A stretch of DNA of 64,000 nucleotides from a virus (IMGVR_UViG_3300025357_000008:1-64000); one strand, 5' to 3'. Shown: positions 1 through 64,000, numbered from the stretch's first letter. The notes: generated from the letters alone by a model not told the origin. Program-made: numbers and translations.

Positions 1-1
1 G

Positions 2-787
2 ATGTTTGCCGGTGATTCTAAGGCTCATAGAATTAAGAGAGCATTGGGCGCTTACTATAAAAAGCAAAATGAAGAAGTTGATGCTGATATGACTGAGATG
101 TATGGTGCATCTGCACAAGTTTACCATAACCCTCAAGAATATCTGGATTCTATTCAGAAGAAAAAAGAAGCCGAAAAAAAGCCTGTAAGTAAAGTTACAA
201 ACCTTGTAAAGAAACCTAACAGCACTCAAATGACTGTTAAGAAAGAAGATGTATCAGAAGAAAAGAAAGATACAAGAACTGCCTCTGAAAAGATGTCTGA
301 TTATGCCGTTAAACGTCATAAAGTTTACCAAGATATTGCAGATAAACAGAAAGAACATGTAAAGAAGTGGAATGAGGATCACAAGGATGAACCTCATTTA
401 CAAATACCGGTAAAAGAAGATATACAACAAGATTCACAATCTGCAACTCAAACTACATTTGATATGGGTAATAATACAGACGATACATCACAGACTTTTA
501 ACAGAGTCAAACGTGCTATGAAGAAAAAGCATGTCAAAGAAGATACTTACGATTGGGAGAAAGCCGATAAATCGGTAGCATCTCCAGGCAAGAAGCCTAA
601 AATGGATAAATCTAATGAAAAGGATGGGGAGGGAGTTGCTAAACCAAAAGCCGCCGCCGTTCTATCTGGTGGTACAACTATGACGGGTGAACCAAGAGAT
701 ACTATTGAAATTGACCCGTCAATGAGAGGCAGACCAGGTCAGGATGGTGGAATGCCATCGGATAAGAAAAAGATAAATAGTAAATAA
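2..787 (+). CDS. Charged hypothetical protein, likely 5'-truncated, possibly a head-internal protein
   Basis: K/E/D-rich low-complexity ORF at the window edge, upstream of other putative virion proteins. Confidence 0.45.
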   Translation: MFAGDSKAHRIKRALGAYYKKQNEEVDADMTEMYGASAQVYHNPQEYLDSIQKKKEAEKKPVSKVTNLVKKPNSTQMTVKKEDVSEEKKDTRTASEKMSDYAVKRHKVYQDIADKQKEHVKKWNEDHKDEPHLQIPVKEDIQQDSQSATQTTFDMGNNTDDTSQTFNRVKRAMKKKHVKEDTYDWEKADKSVASPGKKPKMDKSNEKDGEGVAKPKAAAVLSGGTTMTGEPRDTIEIDPSMRGRPGQDGGMPSDKKKINSK

Positions 788-810
788 CAGTTCCCTAAGG
801 AGAAAAACAA

Positions 811-1437
811 ATGTCAGCATGGTCAAATAACGACAATCACAATAGCAAACCAAAATATAATTACGAACGTGAAACAATGCCAGTAATTCAATTACCAGTT
901 CGTACCGGTAATACTTCTGGTAATAATATTATTCAAGTTTCATACAATGACGGTGGCCAAAACAACGTTGCAAACGTTGGTATCGTTGCAAATACATACG
1001 TGTATTTTTGGGCAAACGGAACAGCAGACGGTAAAGGTGGAACGTCAGGTAACGGTGTTCCTGGATTCTTTGCATCAAATACAACTGTTGCATCAACATC
1101 CGGTAATACAATTACATTGAATCAAAACCTTTTCAACACAGTTAGTGCTGGCTTCATTGCAGAATTTGATTCTTCAATTGTATACTCAACAAATAAAACT
1201 GTTGAGAAAACATACAATCAAGATACTGTTTTAGTTACAGCAACCCGTTACGCTAATGCTATTTCTACGAAATTGAATCCAGCGCACACAGGATGGACTC
1301 ACATTCAAAGAAAGATTAATAATGACGGCACAGTACGTTATATTACTGAAGTTCTAGTTGCTACAGCAAACGCAACTGCAACAAACACAGCATCTGGTAA
1401 TATCAGCAATAGTATTATTGCATTTACTGGCGTATAA
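811..1437 (+). CDS. Putative virion structural protein
   Basis: N/T/S/G-rich, AAGGAG RBS, late-promoter-like GATAAATA at ~772, followed by a terminator hairpin. Confidence 0.5.
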   Translation: MSAWSNNDNHNSKPKYNYERETMPVIQLPVRTGNTSGNNIIQVSYNDGGQNNVANVGIVANTYVYFWANGTADGKGGTSGNGVPGFFASNTTVASTSGNTITLNQNLFNTVSAGFIAEFDSSIVYSTNKTVEKTYNQDTVLVTATRYANAISTKLNPAHTGWTHIQRKINNDGTVRYITEVLVATANATATNTASGNISNSIIAFTGV

Positions 1438-1462
1438 TAAAAGGGACCTTGTGTCCCTTTCT
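1438..1462 (+). terminator. Intrinsic terminator-like hairpin
   Basis: aaagggac-cttgt-gtcccttt inverted repeat directly after the stop codon. Confidence 0.55.
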
Positions 1463-1467
1463 TAACT

Positions 1468-1854
1468 ATGTTTGAAAATTTGAATGAAGATAATTTTATG
1501 ATGTATGCGGTCAAATGCTATACATCACCTAATTGTATTATGTCGGAGTTCGAAAGTGATATTAAGCGAATCAAGTATCTTAAGAGACTTTTTAGACGTT
1601 ATAAATCTACTAAGTCTCTTAAAGAACGTTTAATATTAAATCATATTATTTTATTGAATAACGTTTTTGGTGCAGAACACATGCCAAGAATGTTGTTCTA
1701 TAAAATAGATGAACGAGATTATGATGTGCTTAAGACTTTCTTAGCATACTTGAATTTGTTACCAGATTTCGTCTATGGTGTTGACGGTAAAAACATCATA
1801 GTGTCAAATATACCATACGAAGAGAGTGTTGCAGAAATACTAAGTCAAATATGA
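1468..1854 (+). CDS. Conserved T4-like phage hypothetical protein
   Basis: EFESDIKRIKYLKRLF...ERLILNHIILLNNVFG motif recognised from T4-like marine/freshwater phages. Confidence 0.65.
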   Translation: MFENLNEDNFMMYAVKCYTSPNCIMSEFESDIKRIKYLKRLFRRYKSTKSLKERLILNHIILLNNVFGAEHMPRMLFYKIDERDYDVLKTFLAYLNLLPDFVYGVDGKNIIVSNIPYEESVAEILSQI

Positions 1855-2615
1855 AATCATTCAAGCAATTTATAAACGAATTAGATAGTATCAACGAAGC
1901 AGATACATCACATGCCACAAAAGCAGAAAGTGATTTAGTTGAGCATCTAAAGAAGCATGGTGCTATGCACAAAGATGCAAAAGCCGCAGGTAATACTGGC
2001 GGAAATGATTTTCATATTGTACACCCAAAATCAAAAGAACACGTAGAAGGCTCTGAAGTACATAAACTCGAAGGTGAGACAAAGATTAATACTAAGGGTG
2101 CTAAATTAGGTTCTGTTGCTATCAGATATCACAAAGACAAAGGTGGATGGCATATTCCTGATGAAACTAAAAAGAAAAAGCCTCACTTTGCACACGCAGT
2201 TGAAAACTCAACTGTAGGCGGTAAAAAACTAATGGATCATTTGAATCATCATTGGGGTGCACCTAAAGAAGGTAAACATTTGCCTGGTGTTACAACAGAT
2301 GAGACAGATGCACATCCTGCTCATGCTTATATGAAAGATAAAAACGTTCACGTACTTCACATTGGTGATAAAGGCACATATAGAGCAGGTGATAGTGAAC
2401 ACAAAGACCATCATAACACAAGTCTACCGTCTTTTAAAGCAAAAGGTAAACTACATATCAGTACAGAACGCAAAGGTGGCGGACAAAATAAAAACGGTAC
2501 AGGTATGCAGGTTAACTTTAGAGTAAAGCCTAATAGTGTTGAGAAATCTCACACAGATATTAGCACAGAACACGGAATTAAGAAAGTTTTACATCACATG
2601 AGTAATAGCAAATGA
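1851..2615 (+). CDS. His-rich putative head-internal protein with possible PD-(D/E)XK nuclease-like motif
   Basis: N-terminal MKSFKQFINE resembles T4 capsid-targeting sequences; GGNDFHI...EGETKI pattern. Confidence 0.45.
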   Translation: MKSFKQFINELDSINEADTSHATKAESDLVEHLKKHGAMHKDAKAAGNTGGNDFHIVHPKSKEHVEGSEVHKLEGETKINTKGAKLGSVAIRYHKDKGGWHIPDETKKKKPHFAHAVENSTVGGKKLMDHLNHHWGAPKEGKHLPGVTTDETDAHPAHAYMKDKNVHVLHIGDKGTYRAGDSEHKDHHNTSLPSFKAKGKLHISTERKGGGQNKNGTGMQVNFRVKPNSVEKSHTDISTEHGIKKVLHHMSNSK

Positions 2616-3034
2616 AATCATTCAAACAATTTTGTAATGAAGTAAAAGAGCCTACAGGTGAACTCAAAAAGGCTTGCTGGACAGGTTATACTGCTGTCGG
2701 TACAAAAAAGAAAAACGGTAGAACAGTACCTAATTGCGTACCCGAAGAAGTTATTTGGGAATCTGAAGCATGGGAAAGAAAAGAAGGTAAGAATCCTGCT
2801 GGTGGATTAAATGCCAAAGGTGTTGCATCTTACAATAGAGCAAACCCAGGACATCATTTAAAGATGGCAGTAACAACAAAACCATCTAAACTAAAACCAG
2901 GTAGTAAGTCTGCTAATCGTAGAAAATCTTTTTGTGCTAGAATGTCCGGCATGAAAAAACGCTTAACTTCATCAAAGACTGCTCACGACCCAAATTCAAG
3001 AATTAATAAGTCACTAAGAAAGTGGAACTGCTAA
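2612..3034 (+). CDS. Basic conserved phage protein (CWxGY...VPNCVP and RRKSFCARM modules), putative head-internal protein
   Basis: N-terminal MKSFKQFCNE; modules common in T4-like phage internal proteins. Confidence 0.55.
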   Translation: MKSFKQFCNEVKEPTGELKKACWTGYTAVGTKKKNGRTVPNCVPEEVIWESEAWERKEGKNPAGGLNAKGVASYNRANPGHHLKMAVTTKPSKLKPGSKSANRRKSFCARMSGMKKRLTSSKTAHDPNSRINKSLRKWNC

Positions 3035-3228
3035 TGTTTTCATTTAAACAATTTAGACAATTACAAGAAGACGGTGGAGCAGTTGCCGCAGGTCCTACAG
3101 TTGTAACTGGTGGTGTTGCAGGTATCGGTGCAGGTCCGGCTAAGTTTGCAGAGCCTGGTGTCAATAGAAAGAAAAAGAATAACCCTGTAATGGGTTCAAT
3201 GGCGAGAAGAAAACTACCTTCATATTAA
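3034..3228 (+). CDS. Small hypothetical protein with MFSFKQF start
   Basis: TAATG overlap with the upstream stop; capsid-targeting-like N-terminus. Confidence 0.5.
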   Translation: MFSFKQFRQLQEDGGAVAAGPTVVTGGVAGIGAGPAKFAEPGVNRKKKNNPVMGSMARRKLPSY

Positions 3229-3229
3229 T

Positions 3230-3793: not shown

Positions 3794-4149
3794 AAAAATT
3801 ATTAGCTGTCGTTTTTCTTTTAATATCAGCTTGCAGTATTCTTCAAGTGTCGCATTTTGATGCTAATGAGTACGAACTTGTCGTAAAAATTAGGTCTACA
3901 GCATCTACACAGAAATGCACACCAGATAACGTAGAGAGCCTCTACAAAACATCATTGAATTTAAAAAATTATAGTGAATATGTACCAAATAATGAAAACA
4001 CATTTACCATGTCTAAAGGTTTGTTTACACTTGTGGATGAATTACATGAGAAAACTGTAATTAATGAAACATACTGTAAACTTAAACTAAAGAGTATTGA
4101 GCAGTCAGCAGAGATTATACAAAAGACTTTAGGAGCACAAGCGAGATGA
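3790..4149 (+). CDS. Lipoprotein
   Basis: MKKLLAVVFLLISA-C lipobox. Confidence 0.65.
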   Translation: MKKLLAVVFLLISACSILQVSHFDANEYELVVKIRSTASTQKCTPDNVESLYKTSLNLKNYSEYVPNNENTFTMSKGLFTLVDELHEKTVINETYCKLKLKSIEQSAEIIQKTLGAQAR

Positions 4150-4355: not shown

Positions 4356-4356
4356 T

Positions 4357-15421: not shown

Positions 15422-15603
15422 GGAGGTAAATTAGGTGTCAAAATTTTTGGGTAAGTTTCGGAAGGACCAAGATACTTTAGAAGATTACAATGAGTATCAA
15501 AGGAATCGTAAGAAAAACAAAAAGAATAAGAATTTCAAGCATTTTGCCGATATGGATTATGCCGAACAGGAGTCTATAACTTTAAGACCTAGAAATAGAA
15601 AAC

Positions 15604-15655
15604 CGTTGCATTAATACAACATTGCCTTGACAAACCTCCACAGGTGTGCTAGAAT
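15604..15655 (+). promoter_or_regulatory. Sigma70 promoter with upstream (T/C)GTTG-N8-CAACA palindrome
   Basis: CGTTGcattaataCAACA, TTGACA 15627-15632, 17 bp spacer, TAGAAT. Confidence 0.7.
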
Positions 15656-15675
15656 TGAAGTTCTGGAGGTTAGAA

Positions 15676-16005
15676 ATGATTATACATCCTAGTTTTAAAA
15701 AGACAAAGAAACATAAACTACCAAAAGCAGTACGTGAACAATATGAATCGTGGCTAAAGTCACACACACCTGAGAAAAAAGTCGTTATGAAATCTGAAAA
15801 ACTTGTCTACAAACTTTCTTCCTCACCAAGAGGCGAGACAGTTCGCTATCCTTCATTAAATACCGGCTTAGCCGTTGCAACAAAAGCACCTGCTAAAGTT
15901 TATACGGGTACAAAAGTGATGGGTATTGCAACAATGCACAAATCCAACGCTGTTCCTGTGTTTAATAACGAAGAAGCCGTTGCAATTTCAAGTATGAGAC
16001 GATAA
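15676..16005 (+). CDS. Conserved phage hypothetical protein (YTG...GIATMHKSNAVPVF family)
   Basis: GGAGG RBS; recognisable C-terminal motif. Confidence 0.65.
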   Translation: MIIHPSFKKTKKHKLPKAVREQYESWLKSHTPEKKVVMKSEKLVYKLSSSPRGETVRYPSLNTGLAVATKAPAKVYTGTKVMGIATMHKSNAVPVFNNEEAVAISSMRR

Positions 16006-16006
16006 A

Positions 16007-16153
16007 ATGAAGAAAAAAACATCCTTTGTTGTAAATTTGCAACGTCCTCATTGTCGGACACCGATAAAACCTGTACAACCTCATAAAATTGAGGTAAAAT
16101 ATGCTCGTAAACCCAAACATCCACAAAAAATGAGAGAAAATTATGAAAATTAA
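16007..16153 (+). CDS. Small basic protein with KYxRKxKH motif (ArfA/T4 gp30.9-like)
   Basis: Hand-translated 48 aa: MKKKTSFVVNLQRPHCRTPIKPVQPHKIEVKYARKPKHPQKMRENYEN. Confidence 0.45.
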   Translation: MKKKTSFVVNLQRPHCRTPIKPVQPHKIEVKYARKPKHPQKMRENYEN

Positions 16154-16406
16154 CCACAAACCACTCGACAAAGTGATGAAGGCATGGGGTGAGAGCATTG
16201 AAAAACCCAATTTTTCGAGAATTTATAATGTAGAAGACCTTTTTGAAGACATTCCGGACAATCCTGACGAGATTTTATTCAAAATTCCCGATGAGGTCCT
16301 TGCGGAAGCAGGATGGCAAGAAGGAGATGAGATAGAAATCAACGCTGAAGGTCAAACTTTAGTATTAAAAAAGAAAGATGTTGCGGTAAACACACAAAGT
16401 ACTTGA
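16143..16406 (+). CDS. AbrB/MazE-type DNA-binding protein
   Basis: FKIPDEVLAEAGWQEGDEIEI...LVLKK swapped-hairpin pattern. Confidence 0.75.
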   Translation: MKINHKPLDKVMKAWGESIEKPNFSRIYNVEDLFEDIPDNPDEILFKIPDEVLAEAGWQEGDEIEINAEGQTLVLKKKDVAVNTQST

Positions 16407-16453
16407 CCTTTGGGCTATTTCTGCTATAATAGAGTCTTACTTATAGGAATGTT

Positions 16454-18568
16454 ATGCAATTAATTCAATCAAAATCTATTTTAGCTAAACTGATGGCTAC
16501 TGAGAACCTTCTCGTTGAAGAACGTAAGTGTTCTACCGCATCCTTTGATGTCAAAAATCGTATTTTGACAATTCCGATTCTTAGTAAAAAACTATCAACC
16601 GAACTTTACGACTTATTCACAGGTCACGAGGTCGGTCATGCACTCTATACACCTTTAGAAGGCATGAAAGCCGCTATCGAATCTAAGACTGTCAATCCTG
16701 GCATTCTAAATGTCGTAGAAGATGTACGTATTGAAAAGAAAATTCAATCTAAGTTTCCTGGTCTTAGAAGTTCATTCTTAAAGGCATATAATGAATTGCT
16801 TGACCGTGATTTCTTTGATACTGCCAGTAAAGACCTTAATCAATTAAATTTCATTGACCGTATTAACATGCACTCTAAAGGCGGTGCTCAACTACTCATT
16901 AAATTTAGTGATGAAGAGAAAGAACTTTTAAAAGAAGTTCAAGAAACTGAAACCTATGATGAAGTCGTTGAAGTTGCTAAACGTATTCAGGCCTTTATGA
17001 AAAAACAAGCCGAAGAAAAGCGTGAAGAGCAAAGAGAAAAAATGCGTAGGGCTGAAGACCAAGACGGTGACAGTCCTGAAGATTTCGATATGGACCATAG
17101 TGATATGGATTTTGATGACTTAACTGAGGATAATGATGATACTGATTATGAGTCTAGCAATCCTGCTGATGACGTAAAATCTTTTACCGATGAGGCTTAC
17201 CGCAGAAATGAGAATCGTTTGCTTGATGAAAAATCAAGAGACTTAACATACATGAATGTCCCACAAATCGACACTAAAAAAGTTGTATTTGATTTTAAAG
17301 ATTTGTATGCACAGTTTATTGCCGATAACGGTACATTAGACCATGCGGGTTTTCAAAAATTACGCAAAGAATCTGAAAAGATTGTTTCTTATCTTGTAAA
17401 AGAATTTGAAATGCGTAAAAATGCAGACCAGATGAAACGTGCCTCTATTTCTAAAACAGGTGAATTGAATATGAGTAAAATCTATTCTTACACCTTCGCT
17501 GAAGACCTGTTTAAGAAAATCACAGTTGTACCTAATGGTAAATCACACGGATTAGTTATGTTTATTGACTGGTCCGGTTCTATGCAAAATCACTTGAAAG
17601 GTACTGTTAAGCAATTGTTTAACTTAGTATTATTCTGCCGTAAAGTTTCAATACCTTACGAAGTGTATGCTTTTTCTGACAATCTTACTGATAGCCTCTC
17701 TGATGAAAACTCACCTACAAACTATGTCGTAGAACCTAAAAAAGGTGATATGCAACTCGGTTCTTTCAGATTATTAAATATTCTTTCTAGCCGAATGAGT
17801 TCTTCTGAATTCTCAACTGCATGTGCCGCTTTATGTTCCTATTGTAACTATAGTGCTCTGACTGACGAGTATGGTCAAATGAGTAGACGTATGCCAAGAT
17901 GGTTCAGTCTCGGCTCTACACCTTTGAACGAGACTATCATTGCCGCTATGAAACTTGTACCAGAATTCAAAGAAAAGTATAGACTTCAAAAAGTTCATGC
18001 TGTGTTTTTGACTGATGGTGAAGCCAATACAATTGACCATGTGTGGATTGATAAACCTTCTGATGGAATAACAACATATGGATGTACACAAGGTGTATCT
18101 GCATATCATGGTGCAATTATCCGTGATCCTATCAGTAGAGAACAGGTATACATCGAACAAGCGTACAGAACTTTTGTGACCAAAGGTCTAATTCAATTGA
18201 TGAAAAAGACTGTTGATTGTACTGTGATTGGTTATTATCTTTTGAGTTCCAGCGAAATGAGAAGAAATAGAAGTAACTTCTTTACATCAAGTATTCAACT
18301 TGAAGATGCTCAATTAGACTTTAGAAGAAACAAATTTGCAGTCGTTAAAACTGCTGGCTTTGATGAATACTATTTGTTGAAATCTGAAGAGAGTTCTATC
18401 TACAGTTACGGAAATAGAAAATCTGATATTGAAGAAGATGATGAAGATACTTTTGAAGTTGCCGAAAATGCAACTCGCCGTGGCATTGCATCAGCCTTTG
18501 CAAAATTCAATGCCGGTAAAATGTCGAATCGTGTTGTTCTTAACCGATTCATTAACTTAATTGCATAG
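16454..18568 (+). CDS. CobT-like protein (HExxH metallopeptidase-like N-domain, acidic linker, VWA domain)
   Basis: GHEVGHALYT, NVVEDVRIEK, DWSGSM MIDAS, STPL, FLTDGE. Confidence 0.88.
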   Translation: MQLIQSKSILAKLMATENLLVEERKCSTASFDVKNRILTIPILSKKLSTELYDLFTGHEVGHALYTPLEGMKAAIESKTVNPGILNVVEDVRIEKKIQSKFPGLRSSFLKAYNELLDRDFFDTASKDLNQLNFIDRINMHSKGGAQLLIKFSDEEKELLKEVQETETYDEVVEVAKRIQAFMKKQAEEKREEQREKMRRAEDQDGDSPEDFDMDHSDMDFDDLTEDNDDTDYESSNPADDVKSFTDEAYRRNENRLLDEKSRDLTYMNVPQIDTKKVVFDFKDLYAQFIADNGTLDHAGFQKLRKESEKIVSYLVKEFEMRKNADQMKRASISKTGELNMSKIYSYTFAEDLFKKITVVPNGKSHGLVMFIDWSGSMQNHLKGTVKQLFNLVLFCRKVSIPYEVYAFSDNLTDSLSDENSPTNYVVEPKKGDMQLGSFRLLNILSSRMSSSEFSTACAALCSYCNYSALTDEYGQMSRRMPRWFSLGSTPLNETIIAAMKLVPEFKEKYRLQKVHAVFLTDGEANTIDHVWIDKPSDGITTYGCTQGVSAYHGAIIRDPISREQVYIEQAYRTFVTKGLIQLMKKTVDCTVIGYYLLSSSEMRRNRSNFFTSSIQLEDAQLDFRRNKFAVVKTAGFDEYYLLKSEESSIYSYGNRKSDIEEDDEDTFEVAENATRRGIASAFAKFNAGKMSNRVVLNRFINLIA

Positions 18569-22990: not shown

Positions 22991-23585
22991 TAAAGATACC
23001 GTATGAGGACATGAAGTTCTATTATACTAAGAGTTTCTACGATTACAATATCGAAGGCACCTGTCTGTACAATGGTAAAATTGCTCTGTACCATTCTGTA
23101 GACGAGACAGACTATCAGGCTATGACTGATGCTTGTCATTATTGCTCAGACCGGACCTCAGATCCTTACCAGTGTACCTGTGAAAACGCACCGAATGTCT
23201 TCTGCTATATCACGGAGTTGCCTCTGAGTAAACGAATCTATCATAGACTGTATGCCTATCTGATATTCTTTTGGTTCCTCAAGAATTTCGGTAGAAATGG
23301 ATATACTTATTGGAGAAGATGGACGAGATGACTGAATTTATATACGGGGTTATTATAGGAGTATTCTGCCACCTTCTGTGGTTCTTTATGATTAAGCCTA
23401 TACTAAAGAACGCTTGGAAAAATTCGAAAATTCCTCTGGAGCCACCTGAAAAAAATTTTAGGAACCCAAAATCGGTAAAAATCGAAATGGCTCTAGGATC
23501 CACAGAAAATAAAAAATTGAAAAAAAGAGTTTGACCATGGTACAACTTTTTTTTATTTTATCGGCCCCCTAAGGCCCCCAAAGGA

Positions 23586-29855: not shown

Positions 29856-32800
29856 ATGTACAAACTAAAAGAAACAACCAAGTGGGATGTAAAGGTGTCT
29901 AATGGCACCTACATATTCGAAAAGAAATTTAAAGGTAATACTGGTAAGGCTATTGGGTTCATTCCTTACAATTCATCCATCCCTACTATGTTCAAGAAAC
30001 CTACCACAATCGAGATGAAAGGTCGAACCTTTGACGAGGTAATTTAAATTGATTGTGTTGCCAAAAAACCACACTTTGGTTGACATAAGTCCCCTCTTCC
30101 GTTATAATTGTATTATGTTTAAAAGGAGTTTAAAATGAGACAGATTGCAGACATTCAGGAGTTATCAGAAAATGGTTATGATTATGATGACATTTGTAGT
30201 ATCCTTGGTTGCGAGATGGCTGATATTGTTAGCATCCTTGGTGAAGAACCTATTCAACTAGATGATGACGAGGTAGAATTTTATGGATAAATTTGTAAAA
30301 GATGACCTGGTAGCCGTATTGGTATCACCAGGTTACGGTGCAGGCTGGTACTCATGGTCAAATGATGAATCAATGTTATTTGATCCTGGTCTAGTTCAAT
30401 TGATATTGAAAGAGGCTACGTTTGAGGAAAAACTAGAATACGCAAGCACCAGATGGCCCGATGCATACGTTGGCGGCCTAAATGATGTTGAGGTAGAATG
30501 GGTGCCTGTAGATACCGAGTTTATGATTGAAGAGCGTGATGGTTCAGAAACTATTGCATATAAAATACATGATGGTTGGCTTAGAGCATAAGGAATGAAA
30601 ATGAGTAAAGAATTAACATTTGAAGATGAGATTGAGGCATTGGTATTAGAAGATGCAGTATTGTTTTATAATACCGGTTCTATTACAAGTACAAGTAGAA
30701 GTCGGTTACAGCAATACGCTGAAGAACATAACCGTGATTTTGAAGAGGCACAATTGATGCATACTGTATTGTTCCCACATGGTTTTCATTGGGCAGGTGA
30801 ATACAATTTGCAATTGAATAAGGAATATCAATGGACGAGCAACACCTAATTGAATGGGATGTTAAACTGTGGACATATGTGTTATACTATAAAGGTAAAC
30901 AATATGTACTTAATGTCAATAATATTGTAGAAGCCTATAAACGATTTGAATTGATTAAATACGGACTTGAAAAAAATGAAGATACTGTTTATTAGTAGAG
31001 GCAAAGACCAAACTGTTATTACCTTGATGTATACTGAGGATAGTTTCGAGATACATTTACATAATGACAATGGTCATGGTGAACTGTGGAGTACAGCCAA
31101 CAACTTTGCCGATGCCGTGATGTATCACAAATCATTATGTGAAAAATGTTCTATAAAGTTGAATATGTGATGAAAAAATGGATGGAAAAAGAATATAGTT
31201 CATGGGTATATTATGATGATGAAGATGGTATGATAATAGGTTCAACATTCAAATATGGTAATTCAGGTAGCATATGGGGTGCAAAGGTTACTAATGAAAA
31301 TCAGGATAAAGTATTGGGGCAATTTATTGATTCTGATTTTGCCAGAAGAGCAGTAGAAAACTATTGGGATATGATGAGCAGAACATTATTGGAGCACAAA
31401 TGAAGTGGTTGTACTTGATTATTAGAATGTTTAAGTGTCCTCACAAGTGGCAACGGTACTCTGAGGTTAATATATGGGAAGATGGTAAAGATATGCCTTC
31501 CAATAGGATTTTTGTAACCAAGTGTGCTAGATGTGGCAATATCAAGAAAACTAAAGCGATATGAATTCAACACAATCACGACTACAACCAGGAACTCAAG
31601 TAATGTTATGGTTAGGTCCGAGAGATATGCTACCAAATCCTCCACGAGATGATAAACAGTATTGGGACAAAGGTGTAGTGGTTGATGAGCCAGAAATGTG
31701 GTCCGGAAGTTGGCAAGTTTTAGTAAAATCGGAGCGCAAAGGTCAATCACCTATTAGTCCCGAGCGTGTATTTGTTATTAAACAACAAGATGAAATTAAA
31801 TAATGAACGAACGAATTAAAGAACTAGCAAGGAAATCTCAAATGGTTTTCTGGCCAACTGATCCTGAAGTGGTCGAACTGTCCAAGGATATTGATATTGA
31901 AAAGTTTGCCGAGTTGTTGATTCGGGAATGTGCCCAAGTTTGTCGAGATCAACCTAATCATTATGCTTTGAAAGCAGACAGAGATAATTGTGCTATTGCT
32001 ATTGAAGAACATTTCGGAGTTGAAGAATGAAACCTATATTACATATTATAATTGTTATATCATTCGGTGCGTTATTATTTTGGTTGCTATTTACATCCGA
32101 AACTGTGTATGAATGTGTTGATGGTAAGTTATATGCGAGACACCTTAACTATTTGTTAGAAACTAAGTATTATTGTTTGCCGATATCTAAAGATTAAAGG
32201 AGAAAATCATGGCTGAATGGATAATTGAACCTACAATGAAAAAATCACTTGTTGAGAGATTAGAGTACTTGAATGGTAAAAAGAGAATCGTAGTTGAAAC
32301 TGGATGGCGTTGGGGTTCATTCAGTTGCACCACCGAAGGTGATGAGCCACCAGTAATCGAAGAAGGTGATGACCTATATGAGTGCGGATATGATGTTGAA
32401 TTGATTGAGACATGGGACGGATGTTGGGAAGAGCATGAGTTCTATGGCTTTACAGAGAAACAGGAAGAGAAGATGCGTGAGTGGTTAGAAGAAAACTCAG
32501 CCTTTGATTTAGAAGAAAAAGGTTTTGAATGTGGTGATACTCAAATGATTATTACCTGTGAGCCTGAAATTAAAAAGGTAGAAAATGAGTCCTGAACTAG
32601 ACGATAAACTATGCCAGGCATACCCTAAACTATTCTCTCAACGTAATGATGACCCTACTACAACTGCTATGTGTTGGGGATTAGAAGTTGGGGATGGATG
32701 GTTTACATTAATAGATAATATGTGCTTCCTCATACAAAACCATATTGATTGGATGGAGAAGAAAAGTATTCCTATTCCTCAAGTGGTTGTAACACAAGTT

Positions 32801-39804: not shown

Positions 39805-41570
39805 ATTATGAAGGTAAAAATTTATAAGAGTGAATGGCATCAAATGGAAAGAAAATATGTTGTCGAAATTGATGAAGATTTGGTCAATGAACTTTATCCC
39901 GATAACACCAAAAAGAAAAACAAAGAAATTCTAAAAGGTTTAAAAGATGGCACCACAGATATTGATGAGTTTATGGGTGATGCTTTTGGTGAGATAGATA
40001 TTGATTGGGACCATGTGGAAGATGATTTATGGACGGACCGTAAAGGCGGATATGAAATAACTTATGAGGTAGAACAATGAACAAGTATATACATGAAAGA
40101 TATGAAAATAAACTCGGCTATGGGCAAGTAAGTCAGACTGCACGAGATGAAAGAAATTATGAAAACTATGCCGGCGAACATGTTTCAACGGAAGAAATAT
40201 TGAGAAAACGTAGTTATGCACAGAGTTACCAAGAAAGCCAAGTTGCGGAACCTAAAATTTCTCTAATGGAAATGCTTACTATTATTGAAAAGTCTTTAGA
40301 TGTATTGGGTGAGCATATGCAAACATTGAATCTTAATTTCTTTCCAGTAATGAGAAGTGGTATTGGTTTGGAAGCAAAACAGGAAGCCGTAACGAGACCT
40401 CATCATTCAGAAGCGGTATTATACGCAATCAATATTAATGAAAAAATTGGTGAGTTACAGGACAGAGTTTTACAAATGTTGGATAGGAATGAACTATGAG
40501 TGAGAAAATGAGTCTAGAAGAATTTCTAAATCACAATGCACCATCAGAAGAGGCTATTGAAGAGATTGCTTTCAATACACTATCAAGACGGTATATTAAT
40601 AAAGAAGAAATTGATTTCAATATTGAATTTAACAAAGCAGTCGATGCGTTAGTGAATGAAATGTACCGTTTATATGTGGAGTCTGATGAATGATGTCTTT
40701 AATACATTTATTGTCCGCTAAACGTAGGTTAAAAGAGTTGCAAAAAACTGTTACTATGTTAAAGCATGACAAGTATAAAGAAGATGATGTACCGACAATG
40801 ATACTTGCACAAAGAGATTTTGTTAAGTTAGAAGTAGAATACTATCAAGATGAGGTAAGAAATCTTTTAGCGTATACTCTTTTTGCCATAGGCGTTTTGT
40901 TTCTTATCGGGGTGGCTTCGTATCCGTTTCTTATTAACTATGGAGTAATATAATGTTGGATAAAATCAAATTGTATATAAAACCAATCCTTCAACTTATA
41001 GTCGGTGTTTTTATTATTGCTATAATAGGACAGTTTTTTTCAGACAGACTAAATAATAATACACCTGAGGCTCTCAAAGAGTTCAAAGATGGAGTTCAGA
41101 ATCATTTAGTGTGGTCAATCAGAGGAGAATGTTTCTTTGTTAGACCTCATTCTGATGTGACTGTGTATTTAATTCGAGTAACGGATTGTGATAAAAAATA
41201 AGGAGATAATATGAGTTTATTTGTAGAAGTTGATTCCGTAGAAAAAGGTTGCCCTGTCATTATCAATCTAGATAATGTATTAGAGATTGCCCCATTACGT
41301 ACCGGTGGCGTAACAATATTTTTTGCAGATGCCGCATCTGTTAACGGTAAACATGCAATGAAGGTTCACAATGAATACGATGAGTTTAAACAGTTCGTAT
41401 TGCAAAGAGTTTCTTCAGAAGATATTGCAAAAACAATCGAACGAATTACACCTAAGGATGCTAAAACAAAAGCAAAACCGGCACCCGCAAAGTCTTTCGC
41501 TGAAATTACAAATTCATTAGAACAAGGTAAACTGTGAAGTTTACTGAGACGCTTGATATTATAAAGGAAG

Positions 41571-45978: not shown

Positions 45979-46677
45979 ATGGCTAAAGTGAAAAAAGTCA
46001 AAGCAAAAGTTGAAGAGAAGGTAATCTTAAATGAAATGATGGCGTATTCATATTTTCCATCATTAATTTACATAGTAGAAGAACCTAAATTTTTAGACAA
46101 TGCAAGAACGGTTGCAAGAGAATACCTTAAAGAAGCCAGAAAGAATCAAGGCAACACTTTACATAAATTGTATCCTGTTGTGATGTCGAATACATTTCAG
46201 AATGATCTTAGAGTTGAAGAGTTAGTTCAATATACCGCACAAGCGGGTTGGAATATCCTTGACAGTCAAGGTTATGACATGCAACACTATAATGTGTATG
46301 TACAAGACTTTTGGGCGCAAGAACACCACGAACATTCACATAATGAAGAGCATATTCACCCGTTTGGTGCTCAATTAACCGGTTTTTATATGTTAGAGTG
46401 TCCACAAGATTGCTCTAATATTATTTTTCACGACCCAAGACCTGGTAAGAAACAGATTAATCTACCTGAAAAGAACATGTCAGAGGTAACCCCGGCAAGT
46501 ATTGCAGTTAATTTTCCTGCTAAATCTGGTACCTTTATGTTTTCTAATGCTTGGTTGCCCCATGCATTTGGTAGACATGGTTCTGATAGCCCCTTTATAT
46601 TCATTCACTTTAACTTAAGTATTGTTCCGGTAGGTATGACAGGTCAAGTTTGTCAACCAAGAGCGGAGGTAATATGA
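45979..46677 (+). CDS. Putative 2OG-Fe(II) oxygenase
   Basis: HIH, FHDPR, FSNAWLPH, HFN. Confidence 0.8.
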   Translation: MAKVKKVKAKVEEKVILNEMMAYSYFPSLIYIVEEPKFLDNARTVAREYLKEARKNQGNTLHKLYPVVMSNTFQNDLRVEELVQYTAQAGWNILDSQGYDMQHYNVYVQDFWAQEHHEHSHNEEHIHPFGAQLTGFYMLECPQDCSNIIFHDPRPGKKQINLPEKNMSEVTPASIAVNFPAKSGTFMFSNAWLPHAFGRHGSDSPFIFIHFNLSIVPVGMTGQVCQPRAEVI

Positions 46678-48567: not shown

Positions 48568-48699
48568 ATGAAAACGAACAAATTAATCTTTAAGCTAAAC
48601 AAAGCAGAGTTCAAGCATCAAAAACGTAAAGCTAAGAAACTGTGGCTTAAGATTTTAAGAAAGTCATTTAAGAGAAAGCAAACGCAATCTGTTAGATGA
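48568..48699 (+). CDS. 43-aa highly basic peptide upstream of tmRNA
   Basis: Hand-translated MKTNKLIFKLNKAEFKHQKRKAKKLWLKILRKSFKRKQTQSVR. Confidence 0.4.
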   Translation: MKTNKLIFKLNKAEFKHQKRKAKKLWLKILRKSFKRKQTQSVR

Positions 48700-48702
48700 T
48701 TA

Positions 48703-48992
48703 TGGTTGTATGAAGTAAATCAAAAGGTGCTCTGGACGGGAGTTCGAATCTCCCCACCTCCACCAAAAGCATACTGTGAGTCGGCTTGCTGATAAACTTT
48801 AAGTAGAGATAGTATGCTTTTGATGGGGGTGCACTTGGTTTCGACAGGGTAAATAGTAGAGGCACAGACAACTCGTCAGGAGTAGACGTAAAAAGCAAAA
48901 TTTAATAACTGCAAACGATGAGTTATTCGCATTAGCCGCCTAAACGTGGCTTAGGGTTTCGGTTAGTTTCCTCGTAACAGAATAACTAACCA
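48703..48992 (+). ncRNA. ssrA: Circularly permuted two-piece tmRNA; tag peptide ANDELFALAA
   Basis: T-arm and acceptor end GGGAGTTCGAATCTCCCCACCTCCACCA (ends 48765) precedes the 5' piece GGGGGTG...GGTTTCGAC (starts 48825); G3:U70 pair; resume codon GCA at 48911, stop 48941-48943; outer ends approximate. Confidence 0.93.
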
Positions 48993-49016
48993 ATTTTTTT
49001 AACTTAAGGAGAAAAG

Positions 49017-49565
49017 ATGAGAAAGACAATTGTTGCAATCGCCACTATGGCAGTTCTAGGAATGGCATCTGCCGCTGATTTCGTATCAGTAGGTGTTGAT
49101 GCAAACCAAAGCCGTTCTGATAAGTCTCAACATGCTACAGTAGAAACTATTCGTGCAGGTAAAGATATCGGTGCAGGTTTTGATGTCGTGATTCAAGACC
49201 GTACTCAAGTTCAAACTCAAGGCGGAATGTATAATAGTATTGAAGGTACTTTAGGTTTTCAAGCAAGTGTTTTAAACGTGTATGCAGGTCTTGGTCGTGA
49301 CCAAGGTTTGAATGCCGCTAAAGATACAGCATACAACTATGGTTTAGTTGGTGGTACTTTGGGTAGCAAAGTTGGTCCTGTTTATGCATTTGCTGGTGCA
49401 AAGACACACGCTAACTGGGACAAAGATGCACCTAAGCAAACTGTAGCATATACAGGCGTTTCATATCCAGTAACTAAATCTTTAGCTGTTGAATTGAACG
49501 CATCTGCATCATTCCAAGACATTAAAGACAAACAAGCTGGCGTTGCCGCTCGTGTAAGTTTCTAA
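49017..49565 (+). CDS. Outer-membrane beta-barrel (porin-like) protein
   Basis: Signal peptide ...ASA, alternating amphipathic strands, C-terminal ARVSF (terminal Phe). Confidence 0.7.
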   Translation: MRKTIVAIATMAVLGMASAADFVSVGVDANQSRSDKSQHATVETIRAGKDIGAGFDVVIQDRTQVQTQGGMYNSIEGTLGFQASVLNVYAGLGRDQGLNAAKDTAYNYGLVGGTLGSKVGPVYAFAGAKTHANWDKDAPKQTVAYTGVSYPVTKSLAVELNASASFQDIKDKQAGVAARVSF

Positions 49566-56604: not shown

Positions 56605-56787
56605 TTACTTCTTAGCCCTTTGTTTTGCTTTCTCGTTTTCTTCTTCAATATATTGCATCAACAAAGTGATATAGATGTCTCTTTCCCAAGGTATCATTGT
56701 TTCAAGTTCGGTTAAACTATATTTGTGGTGTTGCAAAAGGGAAAAATTTGTCATATAGTAGTTTTTTAAACTATCATAACCGAACAT
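56605..56787 (-). CDS. gp51: Baseplate hub assembly protein (gp51-like)
   Basis: NYYMTNFSLLQHHKYSLTELETMIPWERDIY. Confidence 0.85.
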   Translation of the reverse strand: MFGYDSLKNYYMTNFSLLQHHKYSLTELETMIPWERDIYITLLMQYIEEENEKAKQRAKK

Positions 56788-57521
56788 TATCCGAAAAAAT
56801 TCTCTAGCCCTTCTACATCCATTGAATGATCAAAACCACATTTACTACATTTCATATCAACATGTTGTCTAATTCTTGGTAAATTTGAAAAGAAGTCTTC
56901 TAGTTTACTGAATTGTTCTTGACTCAAAGATTCTACAAATTCTGTAAGTTCTTCTTTTGTGCTATCAACCGCATAAAAGTATTGTTGCCCATCAAAGATG
57001 TATTCAATAGATTCAATCATAATATCAAATGCAACGTCTACCGCAGAATCTTTCTGTGCAAGTTTAGTTAGAATTGAGAACTTTGGGTATTTCAATTTAA
57101 TTGACATGGTATCTGTCAACTGTATTACATCTGGTTGATCCGGCATCTCAACATTGACTTCGAGCAAGTTGAGTTTGATTTCCATCTTGTTACCACATTG
57201 ACTTTCCCCAACTGTATTTGTACAGATATATTTGTTCTCTACAATCTCACCGACTGACCTTGCTCTTAAGTTTATGAAATAATACTCAATATCAGTAACC
57301 GGTAAGTCTTCAATGTCTAAATCTTTTGTTAAAGTACAATTCACTAATACTTGTCGAACATTACGCTCTAAAGTTTCTTTTTCATCGGCTTCTAAAGCCA
57401 TCATTAAGTTTCTTTGTTCTTTTACTAAAAAAGGTCTGAACAAAACTTCTTTTTTACTTACCGGTAAAACCAACGTATACGTTGGTGTATCAATTTTAGG
57501 CAATGCCATAATAATCTCCAA
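56787..57521 (-). CDS. gp26: Baseplate hub subunit (gp26-like)
   Basis: MALPKI.TPTY, FRPFLVKE, LRARSVGE, C-terminal CSKCG...EGLENFF. Confidence 0.9.
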   Translation of the reverse strand: MEIIMALPKIDTPTYTLVLPVSKKEVLFRPFLVKEQRNLMMALEADEKETLERNVRQVLVNCTLTKDLDIEDLPVTDIEYYFINLRARSVGEIVENKYICTNTVGESQCGNKMEIKLNLLEVNVEMPDQPDVIQLTDTMSIKLKYPKFSILTKLAQKDSAVDVAFDIMIESIEYIFDGQQYFYAVDSTKEELTEFVESLSQEQFSKLEDFFSNLPRIRQHVDMKCSKCGFDHSMDVEGLENFFG

Positions 57522-60568: not shown

Positions 60569-61194
60569 AATACTTTAGTACTTTGCCGGCAACAGCAGTC
60601 TTAGACCAGAACAATAATATTATTGGTGCAGTAGATTTAACTGCAAGAGCATCATTAATACCAAAGTTATCTTTACAGCCTTTATTGTTCTATCAATATA
60701 CAATACAAGAGCAAGATACACCGGAAAATATTGCATACAAATATTATAATGACCAGTACAGATACTGGATGATATTTTATGCAAATAATATTATGGATCC
60801 CAAAGGCGATTGGCCTATGAGCAATCGAGATTTTACAGCATATTTGAATGACAAGTATGGTACTTTAGCGGCGGCAAACAATCAAACCGTGACTGCATAT
60901 TGTCAATCTACAATATATAGCTATCAAAAAGTTATAACTACATACGATAGTTCATCAACACAAACGTCAATTAAAACGGTAACTATTGATGCACCAACGT
61001 ATGCAAATACTGCAATATCAAGTTCAACTGCAACGTTCCCAAGCGGTACTGTAACGTATACTGTTTCAAAAAATATCATATCAGTTTTAGATTATGAAAA
61101 TCAACTGAATGAATCTAAAAGAAATATAAACATAATCAATAGTATATACGCAAACGATATTGAAAATCAATTTACTTCGTTAATGAATAGTTAA
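60565..61194 (+). CDS. gp53: Baseplate wedge protein (gp53-like, LysM-like)
   Basis: MKYFS, DTPENIAYKYY...YWMI..AN..DP..DWPMS, YENQLNESKR. Confidence 0.9.
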   Translation: MKYFSTLPATAVLDQNNNIIGAVDLTARASLIPKLSLQPLLFYQYTIQEQDTPENIAYKYYNDQYRYWMIFYANNIMDPKGDWPMSNRDFTAYLNDKYGTLAAANNQTVTAYCQSTIYSYQKVITTYDSSSTQTSIKTVTIDAPTYANTAISSSTATFPSGTVTYTVSKNIISVLDYENQLNESKRNINIINSIYANDIENQFTSLMNS

Positions 61195-61195
61195 A

Positions 61196-62650
61196 ATGGC
61201 AGACCAAATTTCGTCACTTAAAAGTGTCATAGATTTTGAGTTAGATTACATCAATCTATTGACTCCATCTTTAGCAAATCCTTTACCATTAAAGGAACAA
61301 TTTAAAGAGTTAAATTATTATGAAGACATCTATAGTAGCACAATTTATGGTGAATTGGTATTGTTTGATGCAACGAATATTATCTCTAATTTGAGATTAA
61401 ACGGTACAGAGTTTATCGAATTTAAATTAAGAAAACATAAAAACGATAATGTAGCAATCGAAAGAACGTTCAGGATTTATAAAATCGGTGAACGTATTAT
61501 GGATGTTTCAAAGAATCAAGAATCATTCATTGTATATTTCTGCTCTGAAGAATTAATGTTATCTGAAAGATACAGAATATCAAAATCATTTAAGAATTCT
61601 CAAATAAGTGATATCGTAAACGATATATTTACCACATATCTTAAACTCACACCACAGTCGGTAACTTTAACAAGACCTAAGAACGCACAAACGAAACGTT
61701 TTTATATTGACCCAACACTAGGTCTGTATGATTTTATTCTGCCAAACAAAAAAATATTTGAGACCTTACATTGGTTAACATTGTATGCAAGACCGGCAAC
61801 ATTAAATCCTGGTGCAGATTATCTGTTCTTCGAGAACATTAATGGTTATAACTTTGTGTCATTGCAGTCTCTGTTTACAAAAGAACCATTCAAAACTTTC
61901 TATTACAATCCGCAGAACGTCTCAATTGAAATCTCTGCTCAAGCAGTTGCGGTAAATCATATGGAAGTGGTAAAGTTTTTTGATGTTTTAGAAGCGACAT
62001 CACAAGGTATTTTTAATAATCGTTTGATAAGTATTGACCCATTGACACGAAATGTTAATGTAACAGATTTCTTTTATGACCAGTACTTTGCATTATCGCA
62101 AACATTAAACAAAGCACCGTTAACTACATCATTACAAAATCGTTGGGGTGATGTAATGTATCATTCACCTAATGATTCTAGAATGGAAGTCGGTGCTTTA
62201 AGGCTTGCCCCAACTAATTATAATGAGAAACAACTTTTCACTTCACCTGAAACTAATTCATCTGTCGCACATGACATACATATTGAACAATATATACCGA
62301 ATAGAGTTGCTCAGTTAGGTCTTGCAAACTATATGAAAATTAAGATTATTATTCCTGGTGACAGTCAAATTTATGTTGGTATGGTTTTGAATTTCAAAAC
62401 ATATGATTTGACACCGACACAATTATCTACACCGAATAGTGAGGCAAAGAAATATGATTTATTCTATTCTGGTAAATATCTTGTTACTGGTGTAAGACAC
62501 ATAGTCGGTAAGACAGAATACAAAACAATAATTGAAATGGTAAAAGAAAGTTTTGGTACTAATGATAAACATTATTTGCCAGCACCACCAAATCCTTTAA
62601 CGCAAGGCTTTCAGAATGCCGTGAACGGAATACAAAATGTCGAATCGTAA
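61196..62650 (+). CDS. Baseplate hub protein (gp27-like position)
   Basis: YEDIYS, YLFFEN..GYNFVSL, IPGD, SGKYLVTGVRH; between gp53 and gp5. Confidence 0.65.
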   Translation: MADQISSLKSVIDFELDYINLLTPSLANPLPLKEQFKELNYYEDIYSSTIYGELVLFDATNIISNLRLNGTEFIEFKLRKHKNDNVAIERTFRIYKIGERIMDVSKNQESFIVYFCSEELMLSERYRISKSFKNSQISDIVNDIFTTYLKLTPQSVTLTRPKNAQTKRFYIDPTLGLYDFILPNKKIFETLHWLTLYARPATLNPGADYLFFENINGYNFVSLQSLFTKEPFKTFYYNPQNVSIEISAQAVAVNHMEVVKFFDVLEATSQGIFNNRLISIDPLTRNVNVTDFFYDQYFALSQTLNKAPLTTSLQNRWGDVMYHSPNDSRMEVGALRLAPTNYNEKQLFTSPETNSSVAHDIHIEQYIPNRVAQLGLANYMKIKIIIPGDSQIYVGMVLNFKTYDLTPTQLSTPNSEAKKYDLFYSGKYLVTGVRHIVGKTEYKTIIEMVKESFGTNDKHYLPAPPNPLTQGFQNAVNGIQNVES

Positions 62651-62960
62651 TACTTTTTTTGGTTTCAATGGTTTTGTTTGGTGGGTTGGTGTCATCACTA
62701 ACAATTCAGACCCATTAACAATAGGTAGATGTCAAGTTAGAATTTTTGGTTGGCATTCACCTTTACAAGAGATGCTTCCTGATTCGGATTTGCCTTGGGC
62801 ACATCCATTACTACCTATAAATAATTCGACTTCATTTGAGACGCCTGATATAGGTGAATGGGTGATGGGTTTCTTTATGGACGGTGAGTCAGGACAATTT
62901 CCAATAATGATGGGTATTTTACCTAAAGCGACAACAGACGGTATCACACCGAATGAATAA
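62637..62960 (+). CDS. Stand-alone gp5 N-terminal OB-fold domain
   Basis: FVWWVGV...DPLTIGRCQVRIFGWH...LPWA...GEWVMGFFMDG...P. Confidence 0.85.
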   Translation: MSNRNTFFGFNGFVWWVGVITNNSDPLTIGRCQVRIFGWHSPLQEMLPDSDLPWAHPLLPINNSTSFETPDIGEWVMGFFMDGESGQFPIMMGILPKATTDGITPNE

Positions 62961-62970
62961 GGAGTAATAA

Positions 62971-63702
62971 ATGGCAGATTCAACAACACAAGGTTCTACA
63001 GGTTCGCAACCAGTTTCAGATTTACAAAAAGCAAGAGAGTTCTATGCGGCTCAACCTTTGTCACCTCTTGCAAATACAAATGCCTCCGCTACAAGTGTTC
63101 TACCGGCAGGTGTGAATCTTGAAGCTGTATCTGCACCAGCAACAGCAGGAACTAATCCATTTGATATTGCGGGTAATGCCACAGTCGTTGAGGTACCTAA
63201 TGTATCAGCGACATCAGCAAGTAATAATACAAACCCAAATATTGCACAGAAAACAGGTACAAGCGGAACAACACCTGCTACTGCAACAGGTGTGACAAAA
63301 GGTACGCCAGTAGCAAACGCAAATTCAAAAACAGTTCACGTATGTGATATTTGTAATGGTATGGCGAGTACAATTGCACAAGCAAGGTCTGCAATTCTAA
63401 AAGCGTTGAAAGAACTTAGAACTGCAATTCTTAAAGCATTGGGCTTAGGTGATGTTGAGGCTCAAATTAAAGCGGCTAAGGCCGCCGCCGCTTGGGTTAA
63501 GAAAGTAATTAAAACAATACAAGATACAATTCAAACCATTCAAGCATACATAAAGTGGATTACAAATTTGATTGAGACACTTAAGAAGGCAATTGAAGAT
63601 GCAATTAAGAACGGTCTTCAACATCTAGTGGATCAATTTAAACAATGTCTTGCTGAAGCAGAAGCATCAGCGGCAAAAGCAGTTTCCGCATCGAAAGCAT
63701 AA
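62971..63702 (+). CDS. Ala/Thr-rich and coiled-coil protein between the gp5 halves
   Basis: Own AAGGAG RBS; low-complexity N-half, HVCDIC, helical C-half. Confidence 0.55.
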   Translation: MADSTTQGSTGSQPVSDLQKAREFYAAQPLSPLANTNASATSVLPAGVNLEAVSAPATAGTNPFDIAGNATVVEVPNVSATSASNNTNPNIAQKTGTSGTTPATATGVTKGTPVANANSKTVHVCDICNGMASTIAQARSAILKALKELRTAILKALGLGDVEAQIKAAKAAAAWVKKVIKTIQDTIQTIQAYIKWITNLIETLKKAIEDAIKNGLQHLVDQFKQCLAEAEASAAKAVSASKA

Positions 63703-63714
63703 TAGGATTAAATT

Positions 63715-64000
63715 ATGACAATACCTGATAGTTCATGGTCTGAACCGTTTTCAACGGCAAAACCACAGTACCCCTACAACAATGTAAAGCAGACTAGGGG
63801 TGGTCATCTATTTGAAATGGATGATACACCTGGTGCAGAAAGAATTCGTTTGCAACATGGAACGGCAAACAATTTTACAGAATGGCAAGCAGACGGCACA
63901 GGAATTACTAAGATTTTCGGTAATGGTTATCAAATTACAATGGCAAACAACAATGTCTACATAGGTGGACAATGTAATATTACCGTTGTAGGTCCTTCAG
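63715..64000 (+). CDS. gp5 C-terminal part (beta-helix spike), truncated by the window end
   Basis: Hand-translated WSEP...PQYPYNNVKQTRGGHLFEMDDTPGAERIRLQH. Confidence 0.85.
   Translation, partial: MTIPDSSWSEPFSTAKPQYPYNNVKQTRGGHLFEMDDTPGAERIRLQHGTANNFTEWQADGTGITKIFGNGYQITMANNNVYIGGQCNITVVGPS

Follow-up and report, generated by a model that had tools for sequence, protein, structure and literature searches.

The DNA analysed here, IMGVR_UViG_3300025357_000008:1-64000 (the window; 64,000 nucleotides), is the first 64 kb of one 170,261-bp phage genome that is held as an IMG/VR virus record and rated complete by CheckV. The genome has a GC content of 37% and carries T4-type genes, among them those for ribonucleotide reductase, the baseplate tail-tube cap, gp47, gp46, gp45, gp44, and gp62; the phage is a freshwater T4-like phage. 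No close isolate relative was found, since megablast of the window against isolate phages returned no match. The phage has 63 genes in common with the Pelagibacter myophage HTVC008M at protein identities of 23-61%, and near-identical DNA is present across many freshwater metagenomes. The subject of this report is a compositional footprint that spans the window, in which short restriction-type words are purged and the surviving copies almost only overlap CC/GG, together with a putative methyltransferase gene of the same genome, P0001, that is the candidate source of the protection. The features concerned are as follows.

1..64000, whole window: compositional footprint of purged restriction-type words whose survivors almost only overlap CC/GG, from word counts compared with shuffled sequence
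23169..23174, plus strand: surviving CAGTG in the rescued form CCAGTG
31947..31950: exceptional GATC (AGATCA) without GG/CC overlap, inside a 75-residue open reading frame (ORF) at 31803-32030
46204..46207: exceptional GATC (TGATCT) without GG/CC overlap, inside the ORF at 45979-46677
48911..48943, plus strand: reading frame of the transfer-messenger RNA (tmRNA) tag ANDELFALAA, with Ala-Ala written GCC GCC in keeping with GCWGC avoidance
56828..56831: exceptional GATC (TGATCA) without GG/CC overlap, inside the minus-strand ORF at 56787-57521
62840..62845, plus strand: surviving HgaI-type site in the form GACGCC
Genome 136970-138550, plus strand: P0001, the SPPY methyltransferase gene, 526 residues, 72,970 nt beyond the window end

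GATC and GCNGC words in the window and the genome

Word counts were compared with those of 200 synonymous codon shuffles performed within each gene, a null model that keeps both the protein sequence and the codon usage; the ORF set comprised 229 called ORFs and covered 94% of the genome. Values written as x/y after a word are observed over expected counts under this codon-preserving shuffle unless another null is named, and HGATCD denotes GATC without a 5' G and without a 3' C.

GATC was found almost only as GGATC or GATCC, as the original prediction from a by-eye scan had stated: 61 of the 64 copies in the window have this form, and the exceptions are precisely those at 31947, 46204, and 56828. 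The share to be expected by chance had been put at about a third, which was too low, the shuffle giving about 43%. The context bias persisted under the shuffle, HGATCD occurring 3 times against 97.9±7.9 expected in the window and 3 times against 230.9±12.1 genome-wide. The whole genome holds 134 copies of GATC with the same three exceptions as the window, and GGATC or GATCC was counted 131 times against 175.4±9.9 expected. Retention of GGATC/GATCC was observed on either strand and in each of the three reading frames, and HGATCD was absent from two frames and stood at 3/137.5 in the third. Because retention is independent of frame and strand, the GATC effect acts on the DNA and not on translation, and a translational or codon-pair constraint was ruled out on this ground.

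GCAGC and GCTGC were both absent from the window, again as predicted (GCWGC 0 against 51.9±4.6 expected), and only 2 copies of GCWGC occur genome-wide against 210.8±7.2 expected. GCCGC and GCGGC are present 39 times each in the window, GCSGC thus numbering 78 against 33.4 expected there and 283 against 89.0 expected genome-wide, and counts in the window of CGCG (0 against 33.3) and AGCT (34 against 154) were low. The codon choices that had been described alongside these words were confirmed by counting. Asp-Gln is written with GAC in 69 cases and with GAT in 10; the first codon of Ala-Ala pairs is GCC 171 times, GCG 82 times, GCT once, and GCA never, yet most Ala codons overall are GCA or GCT; GCC GCC TAA closes the tmRNA tag; and CCGG, said to be common, occurs 118 times in the window and at 282/200 genome-wide. 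The threefold GCSGC excess is a by-product of the Ala-Ala recoding.

Both patterns had been attributed to one rule, by which GATC and GCNGC sites are harmless where they overlap CC/GG. The rule applied to GATC and to several other sites, which are treated below, but the GCNGC half proved not to be diagnostic, because every GCSGC contains CC/GG by construction and because a GCWGC-specific enzyme alone, of the TseI/ApeKI/BbvI type, would suffice without any modification. GCWGC with an outer overlap (GGCWGC or GCWGCC) was counted 3 times against 55 expected, which amounts to almost no rescue, and the few GCWGC sites that survive here and in relatives lie in GG/CC flanks, which is weak support at best. 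Among the relatives, GCWGC avoidance and the GATC pattern were independent of each other.

Breadth of the purge and the flank rule

About twenty kinds of target word are purged. Genome-wide, the shuffle gave CGCG 0/81, CGWCG 2/89, GACGC 17/105, CASTG 32/173, AGCT 142/489, CAGCTG 2/38, and CTGCAG 5/50; AAGCTT, ACTAGT, ATCGAT, and TCATGA were each counted 0 times against 27-39 expected, and AGATCT was also absent. Survival of several of these words depended on the flank. CACTG followed by G (equivalent to CCAGTG) stood at 28/43.4 and CACTG followed by A, C, or T at 4/127, and all seven copies of CAGTG/CACTG in the window (23170, 25541, 28281, 29248, 58466, 4414, and 26106) have the form CCAGTG/CACTGG. 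GACGC with a 5' G stood at 8/14.4 and HGACGCD, without a 5' G and without a 3' C, at 4/75.3; apart from the site at 62840, the sole GACGC/GCGTC copy in the window, at 41548, has the unprotected form AGACGCT. All five surviving copies of CTGCAG have a CC/GG flank, the observed/expected ratio of GCGC was 0.43 as WGCGCW, 0.73 as GGCGCW, and 1.05 as GGCGCC, and AGCTG also follows the CC/GG flank rule.

An unbiased scan covered 210 word-and-flank options. CC/GG arises in 27 of these, and the top 15 rescues by significance all belonged to the 27. The duplicating flank is the only rescuing flank in this genome, as G|CAGTG (1/38) and G|CTGCAG (0/20) illustrate. Palindromic hexamers with four G/C bases divided in the same way: among the 16 that lack CC/GG, 15 are purged and only GTGCAC is not (36 copies against 253 expected), whereas purging touches none of the eight with CC/GG (163 against 161 expected). 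Of the 10 5-mers that are purged most strongly, one alone contains CC/GG, the base rate being 38%. Overlap with CC/GG is therefore supported as the one flank rule that predicts which copies of several unrelated purged sites survive.

Three further departures from expectation were noted genome-wide. The non-palindromic word AGAGCT/AGCTCT is nearly absent (1 copy against 47.9 expected), pointing to a target of the Type IIS or Type III kind, and ACCGGT (64/30.6) and CGGCCG (17/5.0) are over-represented.

The rule was also examined in 80 related viral contigs, which were collected using the P0001 methyltransferase as the probe. The GATC patterns in these contigs were diverse, many having no HGATCD with GGATC kept, five being free of GATC, and many being non-avoiders. 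With the non-avoiders as internal control, surviving GATC was GG/CC-flanked in 86% of cases in avoiders vs 38% in non-avoiders (p 5e-14), surviving CAGTG had a 5' C in 67% vs 23% (p 1e-5), and surviving GCGC was GG/CC-flanked in 73% vs 37%; in contig L040, 20 of the 21 surviving copies of GTAC are GGTAC or GTACC. Under a codon-aware null applied to 30 relative loci, 9 of the 10 rescues at p<0.01 create CC/GG, and the four-G/C palindromic hexamers pooled over 570 kb of relatives stood at 0.72 with CC/GG vs 0.23 without. Purge lists differ between the relatives, and different hosts are therefore implied. Two contigs, L062 and L069, showed a reversed GATC pattern, with HGATCD above expectation (53/33 and 72/43) and GGATC|GATCC at about half of the expectation from base composition (11/16 and 10/20), as if GGATC were targeted.

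Avoidance of many independent host enzyme sites under no common rule, the flank effects having separate causes such as a GGATC-specific protection, is considered improbable. Such an account would agree with the existence of GCWGC-specific enzymes and of many enzymes with 6-bp sites, with the decoupling of GCWGC avoidance from the GATC pattern in relatives, and with the finding that GCWGC, CGCG, and CGWCG are not rescued by an outer CC/GG. It would leave to coincidence the rescue of five unrelated sites by exactly the flank that creates CC/GG, which makes up the top 15 of the 210 options, the hexamer split of 15/16 vs 0/8, and the recurrence of the CC/GG rule in relatives, in L040 for GTAC and more widely for GATC, CAGTG, and GCGC; in addition, the nine NGATCN contexts would each require a separate enzyme. 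Three other causes were set aside. A GGATC-specific (AlwI-like) methylase as the sole cause cannot cover CCAGTG, CCTGCAG, GGACGC, GGCGC, GGTACC (in L040), or the hexamer split; adenine methylation specific to GGA fits GGATC and GGACGC but not GGTACC, CCATGG, CCTAGG, ACCGGT, or CCAGTG; and a phosphorothioate at the GpG/CpC step fits cleavage at ^GATC but not the cleavage positions of PstI-, HgaI-, and TspRI-type enzymes.

Control phages and the source of protection

Four phages were used as controls. Staphylococcus phage K has GATC purged in all contexts (0/54 and 0/47), and cyanophage S-CRM01 shows nearly no purging and is thus uninformative on rescue. The Pelagibacter podophage HTVC019P lacks GATC (0/84), including GGATC/GATCC (0/32), as well as GACTC (0/21) and GGCC (0/14), and its G/C-rich hexamers are purged in both classes (0/14.9 and 4/48.6). 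The Pelagibacter myophage HTVC008M has HGATCD at 0/179 and GGATC|GATCC at 83/123, and its GANTC and GATGC copies survive only behind a 5' G. HTVC019P and HTVC008M share the host Pelagibacter ubique HTCC1062 and form one testable pair; since the outcomes on the same host are opposite, neither the specificity of a host enzyme nor a host methylase explains the rescue, which shows that the protection is supplied by the phage and not by the host.

A host origin, either through a conserved orphan methylase that marks CC/GG or through host enzymes blind to GG/CC-flanked sites, is accordingly given very little credence. Clade-conserved orphan methylases do exist, Dam and CcrM being examples. This explanation would have to be reconciled with the one testable pair, in which HTVC019P is without rescue and HTVC008M has it, and with a CC/GG rule that is constant among relatives whose purge lists vary, implying different hosts; moreover, the cutters of GATC, CAGTG, GACGC, and CTGCAG would all need identical flank blindness.

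Protection in HTVC008M follows a different rule. The rescuing effect of a 5' G extends there to C-starting sites (G|CGATG 12/15.5, G|CCGA 13/41.4, and G|CTGCAG 9/18.6), and purging affects words with an internal CC/GG as often as the base rate predicts, such words making up 8 of 21 purged 5-mers, with CCGA at 16/163 and ACCGGT at 0/5.8; AGGCC, which also contains an internal CC/GG, is purged as well. HTVC008M thus resembles the present phage in being T4-like, in the 63 shared genes, and in having HGATCD purged with GGATC|GATCC retained, but differs in that its rule is a 5' flanking G that covers C-starting sites, in that CCGA, AGGCC, and ACCGGT are purged there and not here, and in its lack of a P0001 homologue, none being found across its whole genome. 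In four of five HTVC008M-like loci none was found within the ±10 kb sampled, and the fifth, L160, has a distant P0001-like domain. The replication module of HTVC008M contains two DruA-like (PF14236) genes and a JmjC/cupin gene (L097:1575-3258 and 15535-16659). All are annotated as hypothetical, and one of the DruA-like genes lies directly after gp46, the position of the methyltransferase in this phage. These DruA-like/JmjC genes are possible candidates for the flank-dependent protection of HTVC008M itself; the DruA-like genes are absent from this phage, and a literature search on DruA returned no functional information.

A flank-dependent protection that is supplied by the phage but is unrelated to P0001, through a mechanism common to HTVC008M-type myophages (another modifying enzyme or a non-covalent protector), is regarded as unlikely but deserves more weight than either alternative above. 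It draws on HTVC008M and the five HTVC008M-like loci, all of which keep GGATC with HGATCD at 0 and mostly lack a P0001 homologue, on the GG..CC / CC..GG hexamers of these phages, which are spared (61/73.8), on the 63 common genes, and on the relatives without any GATC, in which the methyltransferase is intact. The two phages follow rules that differ, however: in HTVC008M a 5' G rescues C-starting sites and an internal CC/GG does not lower the rate of purging below the base rate, whereas the present genome shows rescue by the duplicating flank alone and almost no purging of CC/GG words. Different rules fit different enzymes. No candidate gene common to both phages was found.

The candidate methyltransferase and the proposed mechanism

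P0001 was the only DNA-methylase-like gene detected in the genome by profile searches. In its product DPSSGWAGR, at about residue 303, forms motif I and FTSPPY, at residues 397-402, forms motif IV; FTSPPY and DPxSGWxGR are invariant in 35 homologues, and both motifs were also intact in 14 relatives checked. SPPY is a signature of N4-cytosine methyltransferases. The match to Pfam N6_N4_Mtase (PF01555) scored 29.9 bits against a cut-off of 26.7 and involved only positions 1-61 of the 221 in the profile, and P0001 had no NCBIfam match and no sequence match in the PDB. The family is large in metagenomes, has no name, and is strongly conserved over its full length. In an AlphaFold2 (AF2) model with a pLDDT confidence score of 85, the catalytic half is predicted to adopt a class-I methyltransferase fold, and the N-terminal 292 residues matched no solved fold in the fold search, the best Z being 4.6. 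The gene order (gp47, gp46, peptide deformylase, methyltransferase, HTH_39, a GT-A-like gene, a PF18909 diphosphohydrolase, gp45, gp44, and gp62) places P0001 inside the replication module.

Profile searches of the genome for other modification genes gave no match to C5-methylase PF00145, to Dam-type PF02086 and PF05869, to N6_Mtase PF02384, or to the thymidylate-synthase/dCMP hydroxymethylase family PF00303, so that the T-even hydroxymethylcytosine route finds no counterpart; the heavy loss of sites with a C also speaks for cytosines that are mostly ordinary. A 7-deazaguanine, one of the options in the original prediction, was not borne out, as DpdA/TGT PF01702 and QueC PF06508 were without a match in the genome, the controls matching in 14 and 13 reference genomes. 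Modification of a base in CC/GG context stood as the best explanation, with an SPPY methyltransferase as its candidate; the C5-methylase, hydroxymethylcytosine, and 7-deazaguanine versions lack their genes here. Two genes after the methyltransferase lies a gene with a PF18909 dATP/dGTP diphosphohydrolase N-terminal domain (E 3e-36; genome 139781-140140, L082:9782-10141). PurZ PF00709 had no match in the genome, so despite the PF18909 gene this is not a Z-genome, and the PF18909 gene was ruled out as the rescue determinant because loci that lack it (L025, L028, and L061) show rescue too.

The explanation that we favour is that the phage faces hosts with many restriction enzymes and meets them with two complementary defences, marking and purging. 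In the first, the phage would mark its own DNA at CC/GG dinucleotides, the mark being most likely N4-methylcytosine, made during replication by P0001, which is encoded between gp46/def and gp45. The mark would block many enzymes when the marked base is in or beside the site, one marked strand presumably being enough. Modification of the 5' C in each CC would place the mark on about 18% of cytosines (11,515 CC/GG among 63,164 G+C). In the second, copies of targeted sites that the mark would leave unshielded are removed by synonymous codon choice, and copies that it would shield drift at near-neutral frequency. P0001 is linked to the mark because it is the sole candidate and is conserved across a lineage that keeps the rule while the purge lists change, and because HTVC008M, which is without P0001, has a different rule and no general CC/GG immunity.

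The pattern itself is real and statistically very strong, and the chemistry is unproven; we infer from the sequence what the mark is, which position carries it, and which enzyme makes it. A CC/GG mark made by the phage, with P0001 as its likely source, is judged slightly more probable than its alternatives combined. The assignment of the enzyme to P0001 itself, taken within that estimate, falls somewhat short of an even chance. The wider proposal that a lineage of freshwater T4-like phages marks CC by means of a new amino-methyltransferase family, consisting of an SPPY domain and a 290-residue recognition domain, is offered tentatively.

Several observations weigh against a CC/GG mark made by P0001. 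All support for the mark comes from word statistics, and the relatives were chosen through methyltransferase matches, so that members of the lineage without the gene are not in the sample. Some overlaps bring no rescue (C|CGCG 0/35, C|CGWCG 2/33, G|GCWGC 3/55, and C|CACTG 6/37), and CCSGG is purged though it contains CC/GG (11/44). A 5' C rescues CAGTG almost exclusively in the form ACCAGTG (24/22.6; for example at 23170 and 29248 in the window), CCCAGTG, GCCAGTG, and TCCAGTG together standing at 4/20.8, a restriction that the purged words CCCAG and TCCA explain only in part. Some rescued sites contribute the 5' C of CC (GATC|C) and others its 3' C (C|CAGTG and C|CTGCAG), and a single methylated position in CC is therefore insufficient to explain both. 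Five contigs from three lineages (L033, L041, and L052/L058/L061) have lost GATC in every context with the methyltransferase intact, and for these an added assumption is needed, namely a GATC enzyme insensitive to the mark; inactivation of the methylase was ruled out as the cause, since the motifs are intact and the same contigs still spare CC/GG hexamers (0.45 with CC/GG vs 0.14 without). The nearest folds to the catalytic half of P0001 are those of the tRNA m2G enzymes Trm11, Trm14, and TrmN (Z 15-16), generic methyltransferases scoring barely below them (Z 13-15). The retention of GGATC and the sparing of GG..CC / CC..GG hexamers in HTVC008M-type phages, described above, count on the same side.

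Restriction-site avoidance is well known in lytic phage genomes, the GATC-free Staphylococcus phage K being an example. The present phage resembles phage K in the selected, strong depletion of restriction-type words of 4-6 bp through synonymous codons, but GATC is lost in every context in phage K and CC/GG-overlapping copies are kept near neutral here. Chlorella virus NYs-1 encodes the methylases M.CviPII (CCD, 5-methylcytosine) and M.CviPI (GpC). That viral genome is likewise marked at a cytosine motif of 2-3 bases with many enzymes blocked, and CC is the core of the CviPII motif; the NYs-1 enzymes are C5-methyltransferases, whereas the enzyme considered here is a putative SPPY amino-methyltransferase with a new N-terminal domain, comes from a bacteriophage, and has a product and motif that are predicted. 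M.BamHI (GGATm4CC) is an N4-cytosine methyltransferase of the SPPY/SPPF type. P0001 shares its motif IV, SPPY, and a methylated C of GATC before a further C would give resistance of GATCC. Unlike P0001, in which motif I (~303) precedes motif IV (~400) and the predicted recognition motif is merely CC, BamHI-type enzymes have motif IV before motif I and a full 6-bp site. Self-methylating phages include Bacillus phages SPR, phi3T, and rho11s, T-even phages and P1 with Dam, and the lactococcal 936 phages, and a phage-encoded methylase serves them too as an anti-restriction device; they copy full host specificities, whereas here the motif would be very short and its cover partial, purging doing the rest. 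A literature search found no description of flank-conditional purging as the footprint of a dinucleotide modification, nor of a CC-specific N4-cytosine enzyme.

If the proposal is correct, P0001 would be the first dinucleotide-specific N4-cytosine DNA methyltransferase, with roughly one cytosine in five modified, and phages would purge only those host sites that the mark cannot cover, so that two anti-restriction strategies, site purging and self-modification, would act together and fill each other's gaps. Flank-conditional word statistics would then be a general readout of a phage modification motif from sequence alone; the genome sequence of an uncultured phage would show which restriction pressure it is under (about twenty words) and in what context its DNA is modified, and metagenomes could be screened cheaply by computation for new phage DNA modifications. 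The proposal would further single out a specific enzyme family that can be tested and whose motif is very short; enzymes of this kind are of use as tools, like the GpC and CpG methylases in footprinting. HTVC008M and HTVC019P on their one host offer an analogous but different rule in a cultured relative, by which the general idea could be tested at the bench.

Some further genes were recorded. The phage encodes a tmRNA at 48673-49034 of the window. A degenerate scan of ~186,000 species genomes for its tag, ANDELFALAA, found only a single 1.8-kb contig in a Bacteroidetes-labelled metagenome-assembled genome from a lake, and this contig may be a mis-binned phage fragment. The peptide deformylase (PF01327) that precedes P0001 lies at genome 136338-136970, and a D-Ala-D-Ala carboxypeptidase (Peptidase_S11, E 3e-44) at genome 150369-151106. 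A glycan-type cluster at genome 160573-164913 (L083:12573-16913) comprises a GT2 glycosyltransferase, HtrL/YibB (E 3e-53), and Methyltransf_23 and Methyltransf_24/TylF-like methyltransferases; the other methyltransferases of the genome were rejected as DNA methylases, being small-molecule or sugar types that belong to this cluster.

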